Assembly (NCBI GenBank): GCA_019637395.1
Contig: JAHBVR010000012.1
Location: 1,842 to 65,841, forward strand
Source of the DNA: Vulcanimicrobiota bacterium
GTDB lineage: Bacteria > Vulcanimicrobiota > Xenobia > Xenobiales > JADMJV01
DNA: 64,000 bases
Direction: 5' to 3'
Below the pieces are notes generated by a model, which saw nothing but the letters and a program-made list of their open reading frames with translations, was not told the origin of the DNA and did no database searches. A program made the position numbers and the translations under genes. The stretch's first letter is position 1, and the number at the start of each line of letters is the position of its first letter. Shown in pieces: positions 14,826 to 25,495 of the stretch.

Positions 14826-14838
14826 GATCGAATCCTGC

Positions 14839-14966
14839 AGTGGAGTCTGCCTGATAGCAGACTCCGGCGTTTGCTGCGCAAACTTCTGTGTCGAAGCCTG
14901 AAGTGGAGTCTGCCTGATAGCAGACTCCGGCGTTTGCTGCGCAAACTTCTGTGTCGAAGCCTGAAG
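14839..14966. repeat. 63-bp tandem direct repeat (2 copies), each carrying two inverted repeats
   Basis: Unit 'agtggagtctgcctgatagcagactccggcgtttgctgcgcaaacttctgtgtcgaagcctga' repeated with 1-2 mismatches; 9-bp IR GGAGTCTGC-N6-GCAGACTCC and 6-bp IR GTTTGC-N3-GCAAAC in each unit; lies between the divergent SGNH and DUF2760/Hsp70 genes. Confidence 0.85.
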
Positions 14967-15002
14967 CAGGGGGTGCCCATAAGGCGTCGTAGGCGCTTTG
15001 CA

Positions 15003-15482
15003 ATGGGATTGACAACCGCGTTTCGAGCCTTTTTCAAGGCTCTGTTCAACCGCCAATTCTCCAAGAAAGTGGATGAGCTGCTCAAGGAGATGAAGGCCCT
15101 TCCGCCCGGCCCTCCGCCGGCCACCGCCGCCCAATTGCTGGCTGCTTTGCAAAAGGAAGGCCGGTTGCTGGATTTTCTCAGCGAGAGCCTGGAGGGCTTC
15201 CCGGATGCCCAGGTGGGCGGAGTGGCTCGCGGCGTGCATACCGGCTGCGCCAAGGTGCTGCAGCAATACCTGGTTTTGGATCCGGTGCTGCCCGAGAAAG
15301 ACGGCGATAAAGTGGAAGTTCCGGTCGGTTTCAGCCCGGCCGAGATCCGCCTGGTGGGCAAGGTGCAGGGAGATCCTCCCTTTCAAGGCACCTTGCGCCA
15401 TCACGGTTGGAAGCTGACCTCGGCCCGGTTGCCTGAACTGAAAACCCTGGACATTTTGGTGCCGGCGGAGGTGGAATTATAA
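15003..15482 (+). CDS. Small protein, DUF2760-like (first gene of the Hsp70-paralog operon)
   Basis: ATG at 15003, right after the repeat (the ORF's upstream extension is repeat-encoded); N-terminal amphipathic 'MGLTTAFRAFFKALFNRQF'; stop is 2 nt before the Hsp70 start; DUF2760 assignment is from memory of family associations, not a search. Confidence 0.5.
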   Translation: MGLTTAFRAFFKALFNRQFSKKVDELLKEMKALPPGPPPATAAQLLAALQKEGRLLDFLSESLEGFPDAQVGGVARGVHTGCAKVLQQYLVLDPVLPEKDGDKVEVPVGFSPAEIRLVGKVQGDPPFQGTLRHHGWKLTSARLPELKTLDILVPAEVEL

Positions 15483-15484
15483 CT

Positions 15485-17227
15485 ATGATTGTGGGAATCG
15501 ACCTGGGGACCACCAACTGCGCTCTTGCCTATGTGCAGGACGAGGGAGTTCAGGACTTCGCCATTCCGCAGCTGGTCGCCCCGGACGAAGTCGAGGCCAG
15601 GCCCACTCTGCCCTCTTATCTCTATCTGCCCTCCCAGCATGAGTTCGCCCTGGGCAGCCTGTCGTTGCCTTGGGACGAGGTGGCCGAGTTCGCGGTGGGC
15701 ACGATGGCTCGTGACGAGGGCTCGAAAGTGCCCGACCGCTTGATCGTTTCTGCCAAGAGCTGGCTGTGCAACGCCCAGGTGGACCGGCAGCAACCTCTGC
15801 TACCCTGGAAATCCGCCGAAGAAGTCCCCAAACTCTCGCCGGTCGAAGTGACCACCCGTTACCTTCGCCATCTGGCCGATTCCTGGCGCTTTTCGCGCAC
15901 CGGCGGCAGTCTCAGCGAACACTCGGTCTTTCTGACCGTGCCCGCCAGCTTTGACGCGGTGGCCCGTGAGCTCACGGTGGAGGCCGCCCAGAAAGCGGGC
16001 CTGGAGAATCTCACCCTGCTGGAAGAGCCGCAGGCCGCTTTTTACGCCTGGTTGGAGCAAATGGGCGAGGCCTGGCGGGAGGCGGTCAAGCTGGGCGACC
16101 ATATTTTGGTTTGCGACCTGGGGGGCGGGACTTCTGACTTTACGCTGATCCGGGTGGACGAAGACGAGGGCCAGCTCAGTCTGACGCGGTTGGCCGTGGG
16201 CGACCATTTGCTGCTGGGCGGAGACAACATGGATCTCGGTCTGGCCGCCACCGTCCAGGCCCGCCTGCGAGCCGAGGGGCAGAAGATCGACTCCTGGCAG
16301 TTCCAGGTGCTGACCCACCTGTGCCGCAATGCCAAGGAAAAGATGCTGGCCGCCGACCCGCTGGAGTTATGCCCGTTGACCATTCCCGGCCGGGGCGCCA
16401 AGATGCTGCTCGGCTCCACCTCCAGCGAGATCCACCGCTCCGAAGTGGAGAAGGTCATTCTCGATGGCTTCTTCCCCAGGGTGGAATCGAAGGATTGGGC
16501 GCAACGCCAGCGCCGCTTCGGCCTTACGGAACTGGGCCTGGCCTACGAATCCGATCCGGCCATCACCAAACATCTGGCCAGATTTCTCCATCAAGGCGGG
16601 GAATTCATCAAGCCCACCGCCATCTTGTTCAATGGTGGCGTGTGCAAATCGCCCGGAGTGCAGGCGCGGGTTCTGGAAGTGCTGAACAGCTGGTTGGACG
16701 AGCCGGTCAAGGTGCTGCCCAATCAAGACTGCGACCTGGCCGTGGCGCGCGGGGCCGCCGCCTACGGGCGAGCCCGCCTGCAAGGCGGAATTCGCATCCG
16801 GGGCGGCCTGCCGCGTTCCTACTACATCGGTGTGGAAGTGGCTCGCCCGGCGGTGCCCGGCTTCGCTCCCCCCACCAAGGCCATTTGCGTGGCTCCTCAG
16901 GGCATGGAGGAAGGGACCACCGTGGATTTGCCCGGCCTGGAACTGGGTCTGGTGCTGGGTGAGTTGGTGGAATTTCCCTTTATGACCAGCAATCAGCGCA
17001 CCGAGGATCAACCCGGCCAGACGGTGGACGATTGGGAAGACGAAGACGAGATCGAACAGATTGCCACCGTGACCAGCATCTTGCGCAGCTCGGAGGTGGA
17101 CCAACCGGTGGTGCCGGTCCAGCTCCAGACGGTGGCCACGGAAATTGGCACGCTGGAGCTGTGGTGTCAGCAAAAGGGCGGCAGCGGCCGCTGGAAACTA
17201 GAATTTGAAGTGCGGGATAAGCAATGA
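15485..17227 (+). CDS. Hsp70-family ATPase paralog (NBD plus non-canonical C-terminal region)
   Basis: 'IVGIDLGTTNCALAYV' (phosphate-1), 'ILVCDLGGGTSDFTLI' (phosphate-2), 'GGD..D' connect motif; C-terminus lacks the canonical SBD/lid. Confidence 0.85.
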   Translation: MIVGIDLGTTNCALAYVQDEGVQDFAIPQLVAPDEVEARPTLPSYLYLPSQHEFALGSLSLPWDEVAEFAVGTMARDEGSKVPDRLIVSAKSWLCNAQVDRQQPLLPWKSAEEVPKLSPVEVTTRYLRHLADSWRFSRTGGSLSEHSVFLTVPASFDAVARELTVEAAQKAGLENLTLLEEPQAAFYAWLEQMGEAWREAVKLGDHILVCDLGGGTSDFTLIRVDEDEGQLSLTRLAVGDHLLLGGDNMDLGLAATVQARLRAEGQKIDSWQFQVLTHLCRNAKEKMLAADPLELCPLTIPGRGAKMLLGSTSSEIHRSEVEKVILDGFFPRVESKDWAQRQRRFGLTELGLAYESDPAITKHLARFLHQGGEFIKPTAILFNGGVCKSPGVQARVLEVLNSWLDEPVKVLPNQDCDLAVARGAAAYGRARLQGGIRIRGGLPRSYYIGVEVARPAVPGFAPPTKAICVAPQGMEEGTTVDLPGLELGLVLGELVEFPFMTSNQRTEDQPGQTVDDWEDEDEIEQIATVTSILRSSEVDQPVVPVQLQTVATEIGTLELWCQQKGGSGRWKLEFEVRDKQ

Positions 17228-19920
17228 GCAACTGGCTGGTCGGCATCGACCTGGGAACTTCCAACACGGCTCTGGCGCGCATCGTCGGGGACGAAGGCAA
17301 AATCGAAACGCTCAAGCTGACCCAGCGGGTTTCTGAGTCGGAAGTGCGCGAGCAATCCTTGCTGCCGTCCTTTTTGTATTTGCCGGGGGCGCACGAGCTG
17401 CCGGAAGGCTCGTTATCCCTGCCCTGGGATCCGAAGCGTGATTTCATGGTCGGCGAATTTGCCCGAGTGCAGGGCTCGCGTGTGCCCGGCCGGGTGGTGG
17501 TTTCGGCCAAGTCCTGGTTAGCTCACCGCCAGGCCGACCCGAGCCAGCCGCTGCTCCCCTGGGACGGCGCCCCGGACGCACCACGCGTCTCGCCGGTGGA
17601 GGCCTCTCGCCGCTACCTGGAACACCTGCGCGAGGCCTTCCGCCACCAGTATCCTGACCATCCGCTGGATGAGTGCGAAATCGTGCTCACCGTGCCGGCT
17701 TCTTTCGATGAGTTAGCCCGCGAATTGACGGTGTCGGCGGCCCGTCAGGCCGGCCTGGACAAAATCACGCTGCTGGAAGAGCCGCAGGCGGCCTTTTATC
17801 ATTATCTCTATGCCAACGGTTTGAGCGTGGAGAATCCGGCCAACCTGCAGCCGGGCGACCAGATTCTGGTCTGCGATATCGGCGGCGGCACCAGTGACTT
17901 TACCCTCATCGAGTATGCCGACAAGGGCTTGCGCCGCGTGGCCGTGGGCGAGCATTTGATGCTGGGCGGCGACAACCTGGATATTTCGCTGGCCTATCTG
18001 GTGGAGCCGCGCTTGGGCGCCAAGCTGGATATTCTGCAGTGGGGCGTGCTGCGCAACGAATGCCGCCGCGCCAAAGAACTGCTGCTCGGCGACGACCCGC
18101 CTGACAAAGTCACCGTGACCGTGCCCGGCTCCGGGTCCAAGCTGTTAGCCGGCACCATGCAGGCCGATTTGAGCCGCGACGAGGTGGAAAAGCTGGTATT
18201 GGACGGCTTTTTCCCGGTGGTGCCCATCGACGAGCCGCTCCAGGCCGAGCGCCGACTGGGCCTCAAGGAGTGGGGCCTGCCTTATGCCAGTGACCCGGCC
18301 GTGCCGCGCCATCTCAGCAGTTTCTTGCGGCGCCATGGCCGCCGCGACCATATCCCCAACAAGATTCTCTTCAACGGCGGCGCCTGCCGGGCGCTGGCCA
18401 TCCGCCAGCGCATGCTGCAGATTCTGGAAAGTTGGCGCGGCGGACCGGTGGAGGAGTTGACCAACCCCGAGTCGGATCTCTCGGTAGCCCGTGGAGCCGC
18501 CTATTACGGGCACCTCAAACGCAGCGGCGCCAGGCGCATCGGCGGCGGTATCGCCCGCAGCTACTACCTGCAGTTGAGCAGCGACGGCACTTCCACCCAG
18601 GCGCTCTGCGTGGTGCCGCGTAACCTTGAGGCCGGCTCGCGCGTGGATCTGCCCGAACCGGTGTTGCAGCTCACCCTGGAGCGTCCGGTGCGCTTTCCCA
18701 TCTTCAGCAGCTCCAATCGGCCCGAGGATCAGCCCGGCGCGCTGGTCGACATCGCCGCCGCCGGCGGCAGCGAGGAATCCGAATTTCAGGTGCTGCCGGC
18801 CATGGAAACGGTGGTGCGCGCCCCCGACCTCAAGGTGACTGAAGTCCCGGTGCTTCTCAGCGGCGAAGTCACGGAAATCGGAACCCTCTCGATCGCCTGC
18901 CGGATGCTGGAAGGCAAGCGTCGCTTCCAATTGGAATTCCCGCTACGCGGCGAGGTGGTGCTGGAGGGAGGCCCGGAGTTTCCGCCGGAAGTCGTCAAAC
19001 AGGCCCGCGAAACCATTCACGAAGCTTTTCTGCGCAAACCCAAGGGTCTGGGCACGGGGGTGCGCCCGCGCAGTTTGCTGGCCAGCCTGGAGCAGCATTT
19101 CGGATTGGGACGCCAGTTATGGTCGGTGGCCCTGTTGCGGGCCCTCTGGGACGGCTTCGTGGACGTGCACCAGCGCCGCCGCGTCGAGCCCGAGTATGAG
19201 CAGAGCTGGCTCAACGGCGTGGGTTACTGTCTGCGCCCCGGCACCGGTTCGAAGTTGGACGCCTGGCGCGTGGAGAAGACCAGCGCTCTGCTCGATTCCT
19301 GGCTGCAGTTTCCCAAGCTCGAGCCGGTGCGCATGGAGCTATGGGTGACCTTACGCCGCCTGGCCGCCGGCATGAGCGTGGCCCGCCAGGAACAGCTCTG
19401 GACGCAGCTGGCGGCGGTCATGATCCCCGGCCGCAAGCACTGGAAAACCCGCGTGCCCCATCAGCGCACCCTGGCCGAGGATAACGAACTGCTGCGCCTG
19501 GCCGTGTCGCTGTCCCAGATTCCGGTGGACGACAAAGTGCTGCTGGGCGAGATGATCATGAAGAAATTCCAGGGCACGCGCGACGACCTGTGGCGCATCG
19601 CCCGCATCGGCAGCCGCAACCTGCTGGGGGCAGGCCCCCAGTGGGTGGTGCCCCCCGCGGCGGTCTGGCCCTGGATCAGCAAGATCCTGGACTCGAAATG
19701 GAGTGAAAAAGAGACGGTCGGTTGGGCGCTGGCCACCATGATGCGCAAAACCGATGACATCAAACGGGACTTCCCCGATGACCAGATGGAGCGCGTGCGC
19801 CACCGCCTGGAAAAAGAAGGCCTCCAGTCCCATCTGGCCAGCCTCGACGGCCAGGTGGGCACCCAACAAGAAGCCGCCGCTCTGCTGGGCGAAGCTTTGC
19901 CGGTGGGCATCCGCCTCTGA
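17224..19920 (+). CDS. Hsp70-family ATPase paralog with ~500-aa C-terminal extension
   Basis: 'LVGIDLGTSNTALARIV', 'ILVCDIGGGTSDFTLI'; ATGA overlap with the upstream paralog; C-proximal module duplicated from the upstream paralog ('RSYY(I/L)..VDLP..FP(F/I)..S.NR.EDQPG'). Confidence 0.85.
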   Translation: MSNWLVGIDLGTSNTALARIVGDEGKIETLKLTQRVSESEVREQSLLPSFLYLPGAHELPEGSLSLPWDPKRDFMVGEFARVQGSRVPGRVVVSAKSWLAHRQADPSQPLLPWDGAPDAPRVSPVEASRRYLEHLREAFRHQYPDHPLDECEIVLTVPASFDELARELTVSAARQAGLDKITLLEEPQAAFYHYLYANGLSVENPANLQPGDQILVCDIGGGTSDFTLIEYADKGLRRVAVGEHLMLGGDNLDISLAYLVEPRLGAKLDILQWGVLRNECRRAKELLLGDDPPDKVTVTVPGSGSKLLAGTMQADLSRDEVEKLVLDGFFPVVPIDEPLQAERRLGLKEWGLPYASDPAVPRHLSSFLRRHGRRDHIPNKILFNGGACRALAIRQRMLQILESWRGGPVEELTNPESDLSVARGAAYYGHLKRSGARRIGGGIARSYYLQLSSDGTSTQALCVVPRNLEAGSRVDLPEPVLQLTLERPVRFPIFSSSNRPEDQPGALVDIAAAGGSEESEFQVLPAMETVVRAPDLKVTEVPVLLSGEVTEIGTLSIACRMLEGKRRFQLEFPLRGEVVLEGGPEFPPEVVKQARETIHEAFLRKPKGLGTGVRPRSLLASLEQHFGLGRQLWSVALLRALWDGFVDVHQRRRVEPEYEQSWLNGVGYCLRPGTGSKLDAWRVEKTSALLDSWLQFPKLEPVRMELWVTLRRLAAGMSVARQEQLWTQLAAVMIPGRKHWKTRVPHQRTLAEDNELLRLAVSLSQIPVDDKVLLGEMIMKKFQGTRDDLWRIARIGSRNLLGAGPQWVVPPAAVWPWISKILDSKWSEKETVGWALATMMRKTDDIKRDFPDDQMERVRHRLEKEGLQSHLASLDGQVGTQQEAAALLGEALPVGIRL

Positions 19921-22732: not shown

Positions 22733-25495
22733 ATGATTAACGCGGATAACCTGGACTTTGTCGAGGACGTTCTCAGGGAATATCAGAAGAACCCCGCCGC
22801 CGTCGACCCGGCCTGGCGCAGCTATTTCGAGAAGGAAGGCATCAACGGCCAGAAGCTGGCCCTGGGGCCCAGTTACGAGCCCAGCACCATCTTCAACCCG
22901 CCCGTCAGCAAGGAGGGCGACGCCTACAAGCAAGAGCGCGTCGACCAGCTCATTCGCGCCTACCGCGTGCGCGGCCACCGCACCGCCTGGCTCGATCCGC
23001 TGGGCAGCGAACCGGCTCCCTTCCCGGAGTTGCAGCTTTCCCACTACGGCCTGACCGAGGCCGACCTGAGCACCCGTTTCTGGGCTCTCTCCCTGGGATT
23101 GAAGGAAGCGGTGCCGCTGCAGCAGATCCTGCAGATTCTGCAGAACACCTATTGCCGGGCGGTAGGCGTGCAGTACATGCACATCGACGACCCCGAGCCC
23201 AAGTTCTGGCTCCAGCAGACCATGGAAACCACCCAGAACGTCCGCTCTCTCAGCCACGCCGAGCAAATTCGCATCCTGACTCGGCTGACCGACGCCGAAA
23301 TGTTCGAGGAATTCATCGCCAAGAAATACGTGGGCGCCAAGCGCTTCGGCCTGGAAGGGGCGGAAAGTCTGATCCCGCTGCTCGATCTGGCCCTCGAAGA
23401 CGCCGGTGAATTCGGCATCGAGGACATCGTCATCGGCATGGCCCACCGCGGCCGCCTGAACGTGATGGCCAATATCATGCAAAAAGATCCGGGCCAGATC
23501 TTCCGCGAGTTCGATGACACCAATCCAGAGCTGCACTTCGGGCGAGGCGACGTCAAGTACCACCTGGGTTACAGCAGCGTGTGGACCACCTCCACCGGCA
23601 AGAAAATCGACCTGGCTCTGTGCTTCAACCCCTCTCACCTGGAATTCGTGGGGCCGGTGGTGATGGGCCGCGTGCGCGCCCGCCAGGAGAAACTCGGCCA
23701 GGGCGCCCATCAGCGCGTGATGGGCCTGATCATCCACGGCGACGCCGCCTTCGCCGGCCAGGGCGTGGTCCAGGAAATGCTCAATCTCAGCGAAATCGCC
23801 GGCTACTCGGTGGGTGGCACCATCCACATCATCGTCAACAATCAGGTCGGTTTTACCACCTCGCCCAGACAGGCCCGTTCCGGGACCTATCCCACCGACG
23901 TGGCCAAGATGCTGCAAATTCCCATTATCCACGTCAACGGGGAGCATCCCGAAGCGGTGGCTCAGGCCATTCGCCTGGCTATGGAATACCGCAAGAAGTT
24001 CAACAAAGACGTGGTGGTGGATATGTGGTGCTACCGCCGCCGCGGCCACAACGAAGGCGACGATCCCACCTATACCCAGCCGCTCATGTACAAGCAGATC
24101 GCCCGGATGCCCTCGGTCCGCGAGCGTTATGTCGACAGTCTCATGAAGGTTCCCCAACCTGCCCTGTCGCGGGCTGAGATCGAAGATATCGCCAGTAAGC
24201 GCCGCGAATACCTGGAGGCGGAGCTGGCCAAAGCCCGCGCCAAAGACTACGACTATAAGCAATTATCCACTCAGGGGGGCTACCGCGGCGGCCTGGATAA
24301 GGACACGCCCGAAGTGGCCACCGAGGTCGACCCGGAAAAACTGGCTTCGCTGCTGGTCAAACTGACGGAATATCCAGAGGGCTTCACACCCAACCCCAAG
24401 CTCCAAAAAATGGTGCTGGACGTGCGCAAGGAAATGGCCGCCGGCAACCGTCCTTTGGACTGGGGCGCGGCCGAGAACCTGGCTTACGCCAGCCTGGTGG
24501 TGCAGGGAATTCCCGTGCGCCTGACCGGGCAGGACGTGGGGCGCGGCACGTTCAGCCATCGCCACGCCATTTTTCACGACTACGAAAACGGTCAGGAATA
24601 TATTCCGCTGGCCCATCTCAGCCAGGATCAGGCGCGCTATCAGGTCTGGGACAGTCCGCTCACCGAGACGGCCGTGCTCGCCTTCGAGTATGGCGTCTCC
24701 CTGGATCGTCCCGAGTGCCTGGTGCTCTGGGAAGCGCAGTTCGGCGATTTTGTGAATGTCGCTCAGGTGATTATCGACCAGTTTATCGTCTCCAGCGAGG
24801 ATAAGTGGTCGCGGCTGAACGGCCTGGTGATGCTGCTGCCGCACGGCTTTGAAGGCCAGGGCCCGGAACATAGTTCGGCTCGTCTCGAGCGTTTTCTTGG
24901 ACTGGCGGCCGAAGACAATATCCAGGTGGTCAACCTCACCACCCCCGGGCAGCTTTTCCATTGCCTGCGCCGCCAGGTTCTGCGTCCGCTGCGCAAGCCG
25001 CTGGTCATCATGTCGCCCAAGAGCCTGCTGCGCCACCCCGAGTGCGTCACTCCGCTCAAGGAAATGGCCGAAGGCAGTTTCCAGCGCGTGCTTCCGGATA
25101 CCGGGGCGGGGCCGTCGAGCAAGGTGCAGCGCGTGCTGCTGTGCAGCGGCAAGCTCTACTACGAGCTGGATGCCTATCGCAAAGCGCACAATCGCAAGGA
25201 TGTGGCCATCGTGCGCGTGGAGCAGCTCTATCCTTTCCCGGATCGCGCCCTCAAATCGGCTCTCTCGATCTTCCCGAAAGGGACGGCGGCCATCTGGGTT
25301 CAGGAAGAGCCGGCCAACATGGGAGCTTTGCCCTTCTTGCGCTGCCACTTTGACGACAAGCTTTACGACCGCTACCCGTTCATGCCCATCTCTCGCCCCG
25401 AGTCGGCGAGTCCGGCCACGGGTTCGGGCGCCAGTCACAAAATCGAGCAGGCCTCGCTGATCGAGCAGGCCTTTAAAATGGCCGTACCAACTTAA
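22733..25495 (+). CDS. sucA: 2-oxoglutarate dehydrogenase E1 component
   Basis: 920 aa; N-terminal 'NLDFVEDVLREYQKNPAAVDPAWRSYF'; ThDP-binding and transketolase-like regions read as typical OGDH E1. Confidence 0.92.
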   Translation: MINADNLDFVEDVLREYQKNPAAVDPAWRSYFEKEGINGQKLALGPSYEPSTIFNPPVSKEGDAYKQERVDQLIRAYRVRGHRTAWLDPLGSEPAPFPELQLSHYGLTEADLSTRFWALSLGLKEAVPLQQILQILQNTYCRAVGVQYMHIDDPEPKFWLQQTMETTQNVRSLSHAEQIRILTRLTDAEMFEEFIAKKYVGAKRFGLEGAESLIPLLDLALEDAGEFGIEDIVIGMAHRGRLNVMANIMQKDPGQIFREFDDTNPELHFGRGDVKYHLGYSSVWTTSTGKKIDLALCFNPSHLEFVGPVVMGRVRARQEKLGQGAHQRVMGLIIHGDAAFAGQGVVQEMLNLSEIAGYSVGGTIHIIVNNQVGFTTSPRQARSGTYPTDVAKMLQIPIIHVNGEHPEAVAQAIRLAMEYRKKFNKDVVVDMWCYRRRGHNEGDDPTYTQPLMYKQIARMPSVRERYVDSLMKVPQPALSRAEIEDIASKRREYLEAELAKARAKDYDYKQLSTQGGYRGGLDKDTPEVATEVDPEKLASLLVKLTEYPEGFTPNPKLQKMVLDVRKEMAAGNRPLDWGAAENLAYASLVVQGIPVRLTGQDVGRGTFSHRHAIFHDYENGQEYIPLAHLSQDQARYQVWDSPLTETAVLAFEYGVSLDRPECLVLWEAQFGDFVNVAQVIIDQFIVSSEDKWSRLNGLVMLLPHGFEGQGPEHSSARLERFLGLAAEDNIQVVNLTTPGQLFHCLRRQVLRPLRKPLVIMSPKSLLRHPECVTPLKEMAEGSFQRVLPDTGAGPSSKVQRVLLCSGKLYYELDAYRKAHNRKDVAIVRVEQLYPFPDRALKSALSIFPKGTAAIWVQEEPANMGALPFLRCHFDDKLYDRYPFMPISRPESASPATGSGASHKIEQASLIEQAFKMAVPT

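Follow-up and report, generated by a model that had tools for sequence, protein, structure and literature searches.

The textbook account of bacterial Hsp70 action is that of DnaK working with a J-protein and GrpE, and the specialised, non-essential Hsp70 paralog HscC of Escherichia coli likewise works with J-proteins. Eukaryotes additionally contain paired Hsp70s, among them Hsp110-Hsp70 and the pairs with Ssz1, where one member has a regulatory or scaffolding role towards the other; Ssz1 itself is considered to be inactive as an ATPase and regulatory in role. Non-canonical Hsp70s have also been described in Myxococcus xanthus. The stk locus of this species encodes StkA, a 540-aa DnaK homolog, together with the SCP2-like StkB and the small, PhaE-like StkC (PMC4319316). 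A further protein, MXAN_5323, is a cd10170-type Hsp70 of 925 aa and is far longer than DnaK; its deletion is viable, with mildly lowered sporulation and H2O2 survival (PMC8265645). Deletion of several other non-canonical M. xanthus Hsp70 genes mildly affects sporulation and H2O2 survival in the same way, which the authors attribute to overlapping helper functions, and an E. coli dnaK mutant was not rescued by the non-PRK00290 Hsp70s, MXAN_5323 included (PMC8265645).

The 64-kb stretch of DNA analysed here (the window) contains an intact copy of a widespread, unstudied three-gene bacterial module. This module couples two Hsp70 paralogs to a partner of the DUF2760 family, which has no known relative among solved structures, and genes for a J-protein or GrpE are not part of it. 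Literature searches for DUF2760, DUF3731 and the M. xanthus genes returned nothing beyond PMC8265645, and those for Hsp70 paralogs in general returned only a study of canonical DnaK duplicates.

Organisation of the operon and its upstream region

The genes g1, g2 and g3 are all encoded on the + strand (Table 1), with a gap of 2 nt between g1 and g2 and an ATGA overlap between g2 and g3, so that the coordinates agree with the tight packing described in an earlier note on this DNA. A longer g1 open reading frame with a TTG start at 14871 is not supported, since every close homolog is 158-159 aa in length and begins with MGL. Housekeeping genes coding for EF-P, a PanE-like reductase, a bestrophin and a disulfide reductase flank the trio in the window. 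A large open reading frame is also located in the downstream flank, at 22733-25495.

Table 1. Coordinates of the three genes, their domains and the upstream repeat in the window
Feature	Coordinates	Strand	Description
Tandem repeat, 2 x 63 bp	14828..14953	.	Copies 97% identical; in 177-bp divergent intergenic region
g1	15003..15482	+	159 aa; DUF2760; proposed membrane anchor and cofactor; ATG 15003, TAA 15480-15482
g1 N-terminal helices, residues 2-28	15006..15086	+	Two helices; first cationic and amphipathic, consensus AFRAFFRxLFN
g1 DUF2760 core, residues 41-158	15123..15476	+	Conserved globular alpha/beta; terminal motif PAEVEL conserved
g2	15485..17227	+	580 aa; short lid-less Hsp70 paralog; ATG 15485, stop codon 17225-17227
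g2 beta module, residues 444-578	16814..17218	+	Homologous to g3 module; g2-type loop PAVPGxxPP
g3	17224..19920	+	898 aa; long Hsp70 paralog (NBD, beta module, helical DUF3731 domain, conserved tail); ATG 17224, stop codon 19918-19920
g3 nucleotide-binding domain, residues 1-434	17224..18525	+	Catalytic residues all present
g3 beta module, residues 446-573	18559..18942	+	Nine strands; SBD-beta-like in predicted fold, not in sequence
g3 all-helical domain, residues 588-874	18985..19845	+	15 helices (predicted); includes Pfam DUF3731
g3 C-terminal tail, residues 879-898	19858..19917	+	Disordered, pLDDT <50; end peptide LLGExLPVGLRL conserved

The duplicated element previously reported upstream of g1 is a real tandem duplication, each copy of which comprises the palindromes GGAGTCTGC-N6-GCAGACTCC and GTTTGC-TGC-GCAAAC. 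No other copies of these palindromes occur in the window. A single near-match to the shorter one, with two mismatches, is found inside g3. The repeat is missing from all 89 related loci, that of the closest relative (L006) among them, and therefore lies outside the common regulation of the module; it is possibly a lineage-specific operator or leader rather than a conserved module part. Both a sigma-70-like promoter and an internal + strand terminator were sought, and neither was found.

The DUF2760 protein

The product of g1 matches DUF2760 (Pfam PF10816) with 147.9 bits (cut-off 25; E = 1.6e-43) over profile positions 4-124 of 124, and the family named for the leading 159-aa protein in the earlier note is correct. 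The first of its N-terminal helices has a net charge of +2 and a hydrophobic moment of 0.56, attained by just 0.85% of shuffles. A6 never varies in the family, and conservation reaches at least 90% at both F10 and L14. A transmembrane-like N-terminus replaces the amphipathic helix in 28 of the 231 DUF2760 relatives, and the amphipathic-motif pattern was matched by none of these 28 proteins. Immediately after one gene of the transmembrane type lies a g2-type Hsp70 gene, the product of which is 60% identical to g2. The moment bears out the amphipathic character noted earlier, and the transmembrane helix at this position in relatives supports the proposal that the helix is membrane-seeking; its strong conservation would be equally compatible with a contact surface for another protein instead of lipid binding.

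Nucleotide-binding domains of g2 and g3

Matches to the Pfam HSP70 family are restricted to the nucleotide-binding domain (NBD) in both g2 (67.6 bits) and g3 (53.5 bits; cut-off 20.6). Identity to the DnaK NBD is 27%, and in g2 the domain comprises approximately residues 1-431, after which comes a Gly-rich linker. The catalytic positions D8, K70, E171, D194, T199 and D201 (DnaK numbering) are kept in g2, g3 and at least 64 of the 65 g2 orthologs, and the same six are invariant across 40 g3 homologs; at the level of sequence, the ATPase sites of both proteins are intact. The NBD motifs quoted in the earlier note are indeed present, except that g3 has DIGGGTSDFTLI and not DLGGG. Two J-domain contact residues are changed (R167 to T and N170 to E, DnaK numbering) in g2, g3 and all 65 g2 orthologs. 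In the same proteins, R/G-G-G takes the place of the hydrophobic interdomain linker of DnaK (389-VLLL-392), in an alignment that is less certain here than in the NBD.

The NCBIfam equivalogs for DnaK and HscA score 54-88 bits (best 87.7 for g2 and 74.6 for g3) against cut-offs of 620-1019, and no HscC model was found among the NCBIfam matches of the two proteins. With scores so far under the cut-offs, an ordinary dnaK or hscA identity was rejected for g2 and g3, in keeping with the earlier view that they are not standard dnaK, hscA or hscC orthologs.

Beta module, helical domain and C-termini

The two paralogs share 48% identity across the full length of g2. The C-proximal module, which had been described as duplicated, is common to both paralogs and is not duplicated within either protein. 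As in DnaK, the prediction places a linker and then a beta sandwich after the NBD; the top structural matches are full-length or lid-less DnaK and BiP, and the module following the NBD is predicted to fold like SBD-beta. A profile search against the PDB detected no sequence similarity of the module to SBD-beta, and hhalign against a verified alignment of DnaK, Hsc70, BiP and mortalin SBD-beta gave a probability of 0.1%. The supposed lack of a DnaK beta-sandwich is thus borne out for the sequence but not for the predicted fold, which is SBD-beta-like and docked behind the NBD. Given this predicted fold, both proteins may bind clients as chaperones do.

The g2 protein stops right behind the beta module and is without an alpha-helical lid (SBD-alpha). 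As g3 matches g2 along the entire length of the latter, the extension of g3 amounts to approximately 320 aa (residues 578-898) and not to the ~450 aa first estimated. Within it, residues 657-898 match DUF3731, 'DNA-K related protein' (PF12531; 183.1 bits, cut-off 25; E = 1.1e-53; profile positions 3-248 of 248), and a profile search with the helical domain returned no PDB relative. No variation was observed among 40 homologs at L892, P893 and G895 of the g3 tail. The C-termini read FEVRDKQ in g2 and LPVGIRL in g3, and the EEVD tail is absent from both, as had been noted before.

Distribution and conservation of the module

The module occurs in at least 595 species genomes from many phyla. A g2-type gene is located within 2 kb after the DUF2760 gene in 72 of the 80 genome loci, likewise from many phyla (three of the remaining eight lie at contig ends), and a DUF3731 gene (g3) is additionally present within 8 kb in 43 of the 80. 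The gene neighbourhood, the comparison of which the earlier note had proposed as a check, is thus strongly conserved over phyla. The same trio is found in Kofleriaceae, M. xanthus, Binatia and on a Bradyrhizobium plasmid. Natural fusions of the g2 and g3 bodies, in that order, give rise to proteins of 1,499 aa and 1,536 aa, and each fusion gene overlaps the upstream DUF2760 gene by 4 nt. A TPR-DUF2760 fusion adjoining a fused Hsp70 pair was also observed. At approximately 19 loci with enough flanking DNA, DUF2760 and g2 are paired without g3, which is therefore either not obligatory or encoded elsewhere in those genomes; the genes downstream of these pairs are unrelated housekeeping genes. Some Gemmataceae encode DUF2760 alone.

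Identity across phyla is 57.5% among g2 proteins and 52.8% among g3 proteins, compared to 46.4% between the paralogs within one genome. Orthologs across phyla are thus closer to each other than are the paralogs of a single genome, so the duplication must be old, with both copies retained; by this sequence comparison g2 and g3 are ancient paralogs. Their age is argued from the identity contrast only, since a DnaK-rooted neighbour-joining tree was poorly resolved (monophyly in 19 of 30 bootstraps for g2 and in 9 of 30 for g3, which was not cleanly resolved).

An all-against-all search of the 80 loci for a conserved fourth gene returned just shadow ORFs and lineage-level synteny. Phmmer searches using the J-domain of E. 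coli DnaJ and E. coli GrpE as queries detected neither in the window, nor among the genes at 89 of 90 loci, in agreement with the J-protein and GrpE having been noted as missing. The sole J-domain match, at locus L087 (E = 2e-6, confirmed with Pfam), serves as a positive control for the J-domain query.

The counterpart in Myxococcus xanthus

M. xanthus DK1622 encodes a trio with the same gene order and domain content, consisting of a DUF2760 protein of 208 aa, with a longer Pro-rich linker than g1 of the window, an Hsp70 of 620 aa and an Hsp70 with DUF3731 of 925 aa. Myxococcus g3-type proteins are approximately 46% identical to the g3 body of the window. Only one cluster of 925-aa Hsp70s is present in DK1622, and from its length, organism and domain content this g3-type protein is probably MXAN_5323, although the accession given for the latter in the paper (WP_011555288.1) is not among the four listed for the cluster. 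The experimental data on the trio are those on MXAN_5323, the g3 gene being the only one ever deleted (PMC8265645).

Proposed function and alternative explanations

There is roughly an even chance that the trio constitutes a membrane-tethered, self-contained non-canonical Hsp70 heterodimer machine. The g2 and g3 proteins would act as a heterodimer, to which g3, as the long subunit, may contribute a helical platform and the conserved C-terminal peptide. DUF2760, encoded first and translationally coupled, would be the dedicated Hsp70 partner, with its amphipathic N-terminal helix, transmembrane in some relatives, attaching it to the membrane from the cytoplasmic side and its globular domain docking the Hsp70 pair there. 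As neither the J-contact residues nor the hydrophobic linker of DnaK is retained and no J-domain or GrpE gene travels along, the ATPase cycle is probably governed inside the trio and not through DnaJ and GrpE; housekeeping DnaJ and GrpE from elsewhere in the genome could nevertheless serve g2 and g3. The range of clients is probably narrow and made up of membrane-proximal proteins that are important under stress or in development. A bolder version, which is advanced tentatively and is rather less likely, envisages an obligate heterodimer of two active, divergent Hsp70s, independent of J-proteins and GrpE and kept on the inner side of the membrane by a DUF2760 of new fold. In this version the LPVGLRL tail of g3, the N-terminal helix of DUF2760, or both would serve as built-in pseudo-substrates that gate the nucleotide and client cycle, as a bacterial counterpart of the eukaryotic Hsp110-Hsp70 or RAC logic.

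The complete NBDs and the predicted SBD-beta-like fold would also be expected if g2 and g3 were independent extra stress chaperones using the general DnaJ and GrpE, with DUF2760 as a client or accessory adaptor, and the overlapping helper functions ascribed to the M. xanthus paralogs on the basis of their shared mild phenotypes point in the same direction (PMC8265645). This explanation is nevertheless unlikely, given the replacement of the J-contact residues and hydrophobic linker in all 65 g2 orthologs, the failure to rescue the E. coli dnaK mutant (PMC8265645), and the fixed gene order, overlaps and g2-g3 fusions, which point to joint action. A regulatory or signalling module resembling StkA or Ssz1, which would act at the membrane by locking one particular regulator in its inactive or active state instead of remodelling a multitude of clients, is quite improbable: the trio is unrelated to the stk locus, no regulator gene is consistently linked at the loci, and both NBDs carry the full catalytic sets, while Ssz1 is considered inactive.

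It is very unlikely that g2 and g3 polymerise into actin-like, membrane-tethered filaments in the manner of MreB, FtsA or BeeR, with DUF2760 as the membrane adaptor; the NCBIfam mreB model scores approximately 30 bits where 366 are required, and the marginal Pfam MreB_Mbl match (29 against 27) lies beneath the stronger HSP70 match. The chance that an Hsp70-like ATPase serves here as the basis of an anti-phage or conflict system is slighter still. A DUF2760 and Hsp70 pair does occur among genes with anti-phage annotations (DUF1156, PLD, VapC, TIR) on the Thiodictyon plasmid pTs485, a TIR gene and a transposase are located near locus L005, and the trio is also found on a conjugative plasmid. However, PADLOC-DB gave no match for g1 and g3 and only PDC-M61B for g2 (E = 0.007, 13 bits), no effector domain is linked, DUF2760 is encoded on just 11 of 72,556 plasmids and on no phage, and the flanks are housekeeping genes in the window and differ between lineages in a housekeeping-like manner.

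Should the membrane-tethered heterodimer prove correct, paired Hsp70s would not be exclusively eukaryotic, DUF2760 would represent a new class of Hsp70 cofactor, and there would be a pathway dedicated to proteostasis or remodelling close to the membrane. M. xanthus provides a genetically tractable carrier of the trio, in which one gene already has mild stress and sporulation phenotypes.

Comparison with known systems

The trio shares with the canonical DnaK-DnaJ-GrpE system the actin-like ATPase NBD with all catalytic residues and the predicted domain order, in which a linker and a beta sandwich come after the NBD. It differs from it in the Gly-rich linker, the changed J-contact residues and the absence of both an SBD sequence signal and an EEVD-type tail. 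The alpha-helical lid of DnaK is lacking in g2, and in g3 the helical DUF3731 domain is found instead. To the eukaryotic Hsp110 (Sse1)-Hsp70 and RAC (Ssz1-Zuo1) pairs the sequence relationship is limited to the NBD, the helical domain of the trio being DUF3731, and the likeness to these pairs would be functional only.

An identity with the Stk system was rejected on account of gene content (PMC4319316). The SCP2-like StkB and the small StkC have no counterparts in the trio, and M. xanthus carries a separate, orthologous trio beside stk, so that the analogy to the Stk proteins drawn in the earlier note does not hold at the level of the locus. The trio does resemble HscC and StkA in that these are specialised, non-essential bacterial Hsp70 paralogs outside the heat-shock core (StkA: PMC4319316).

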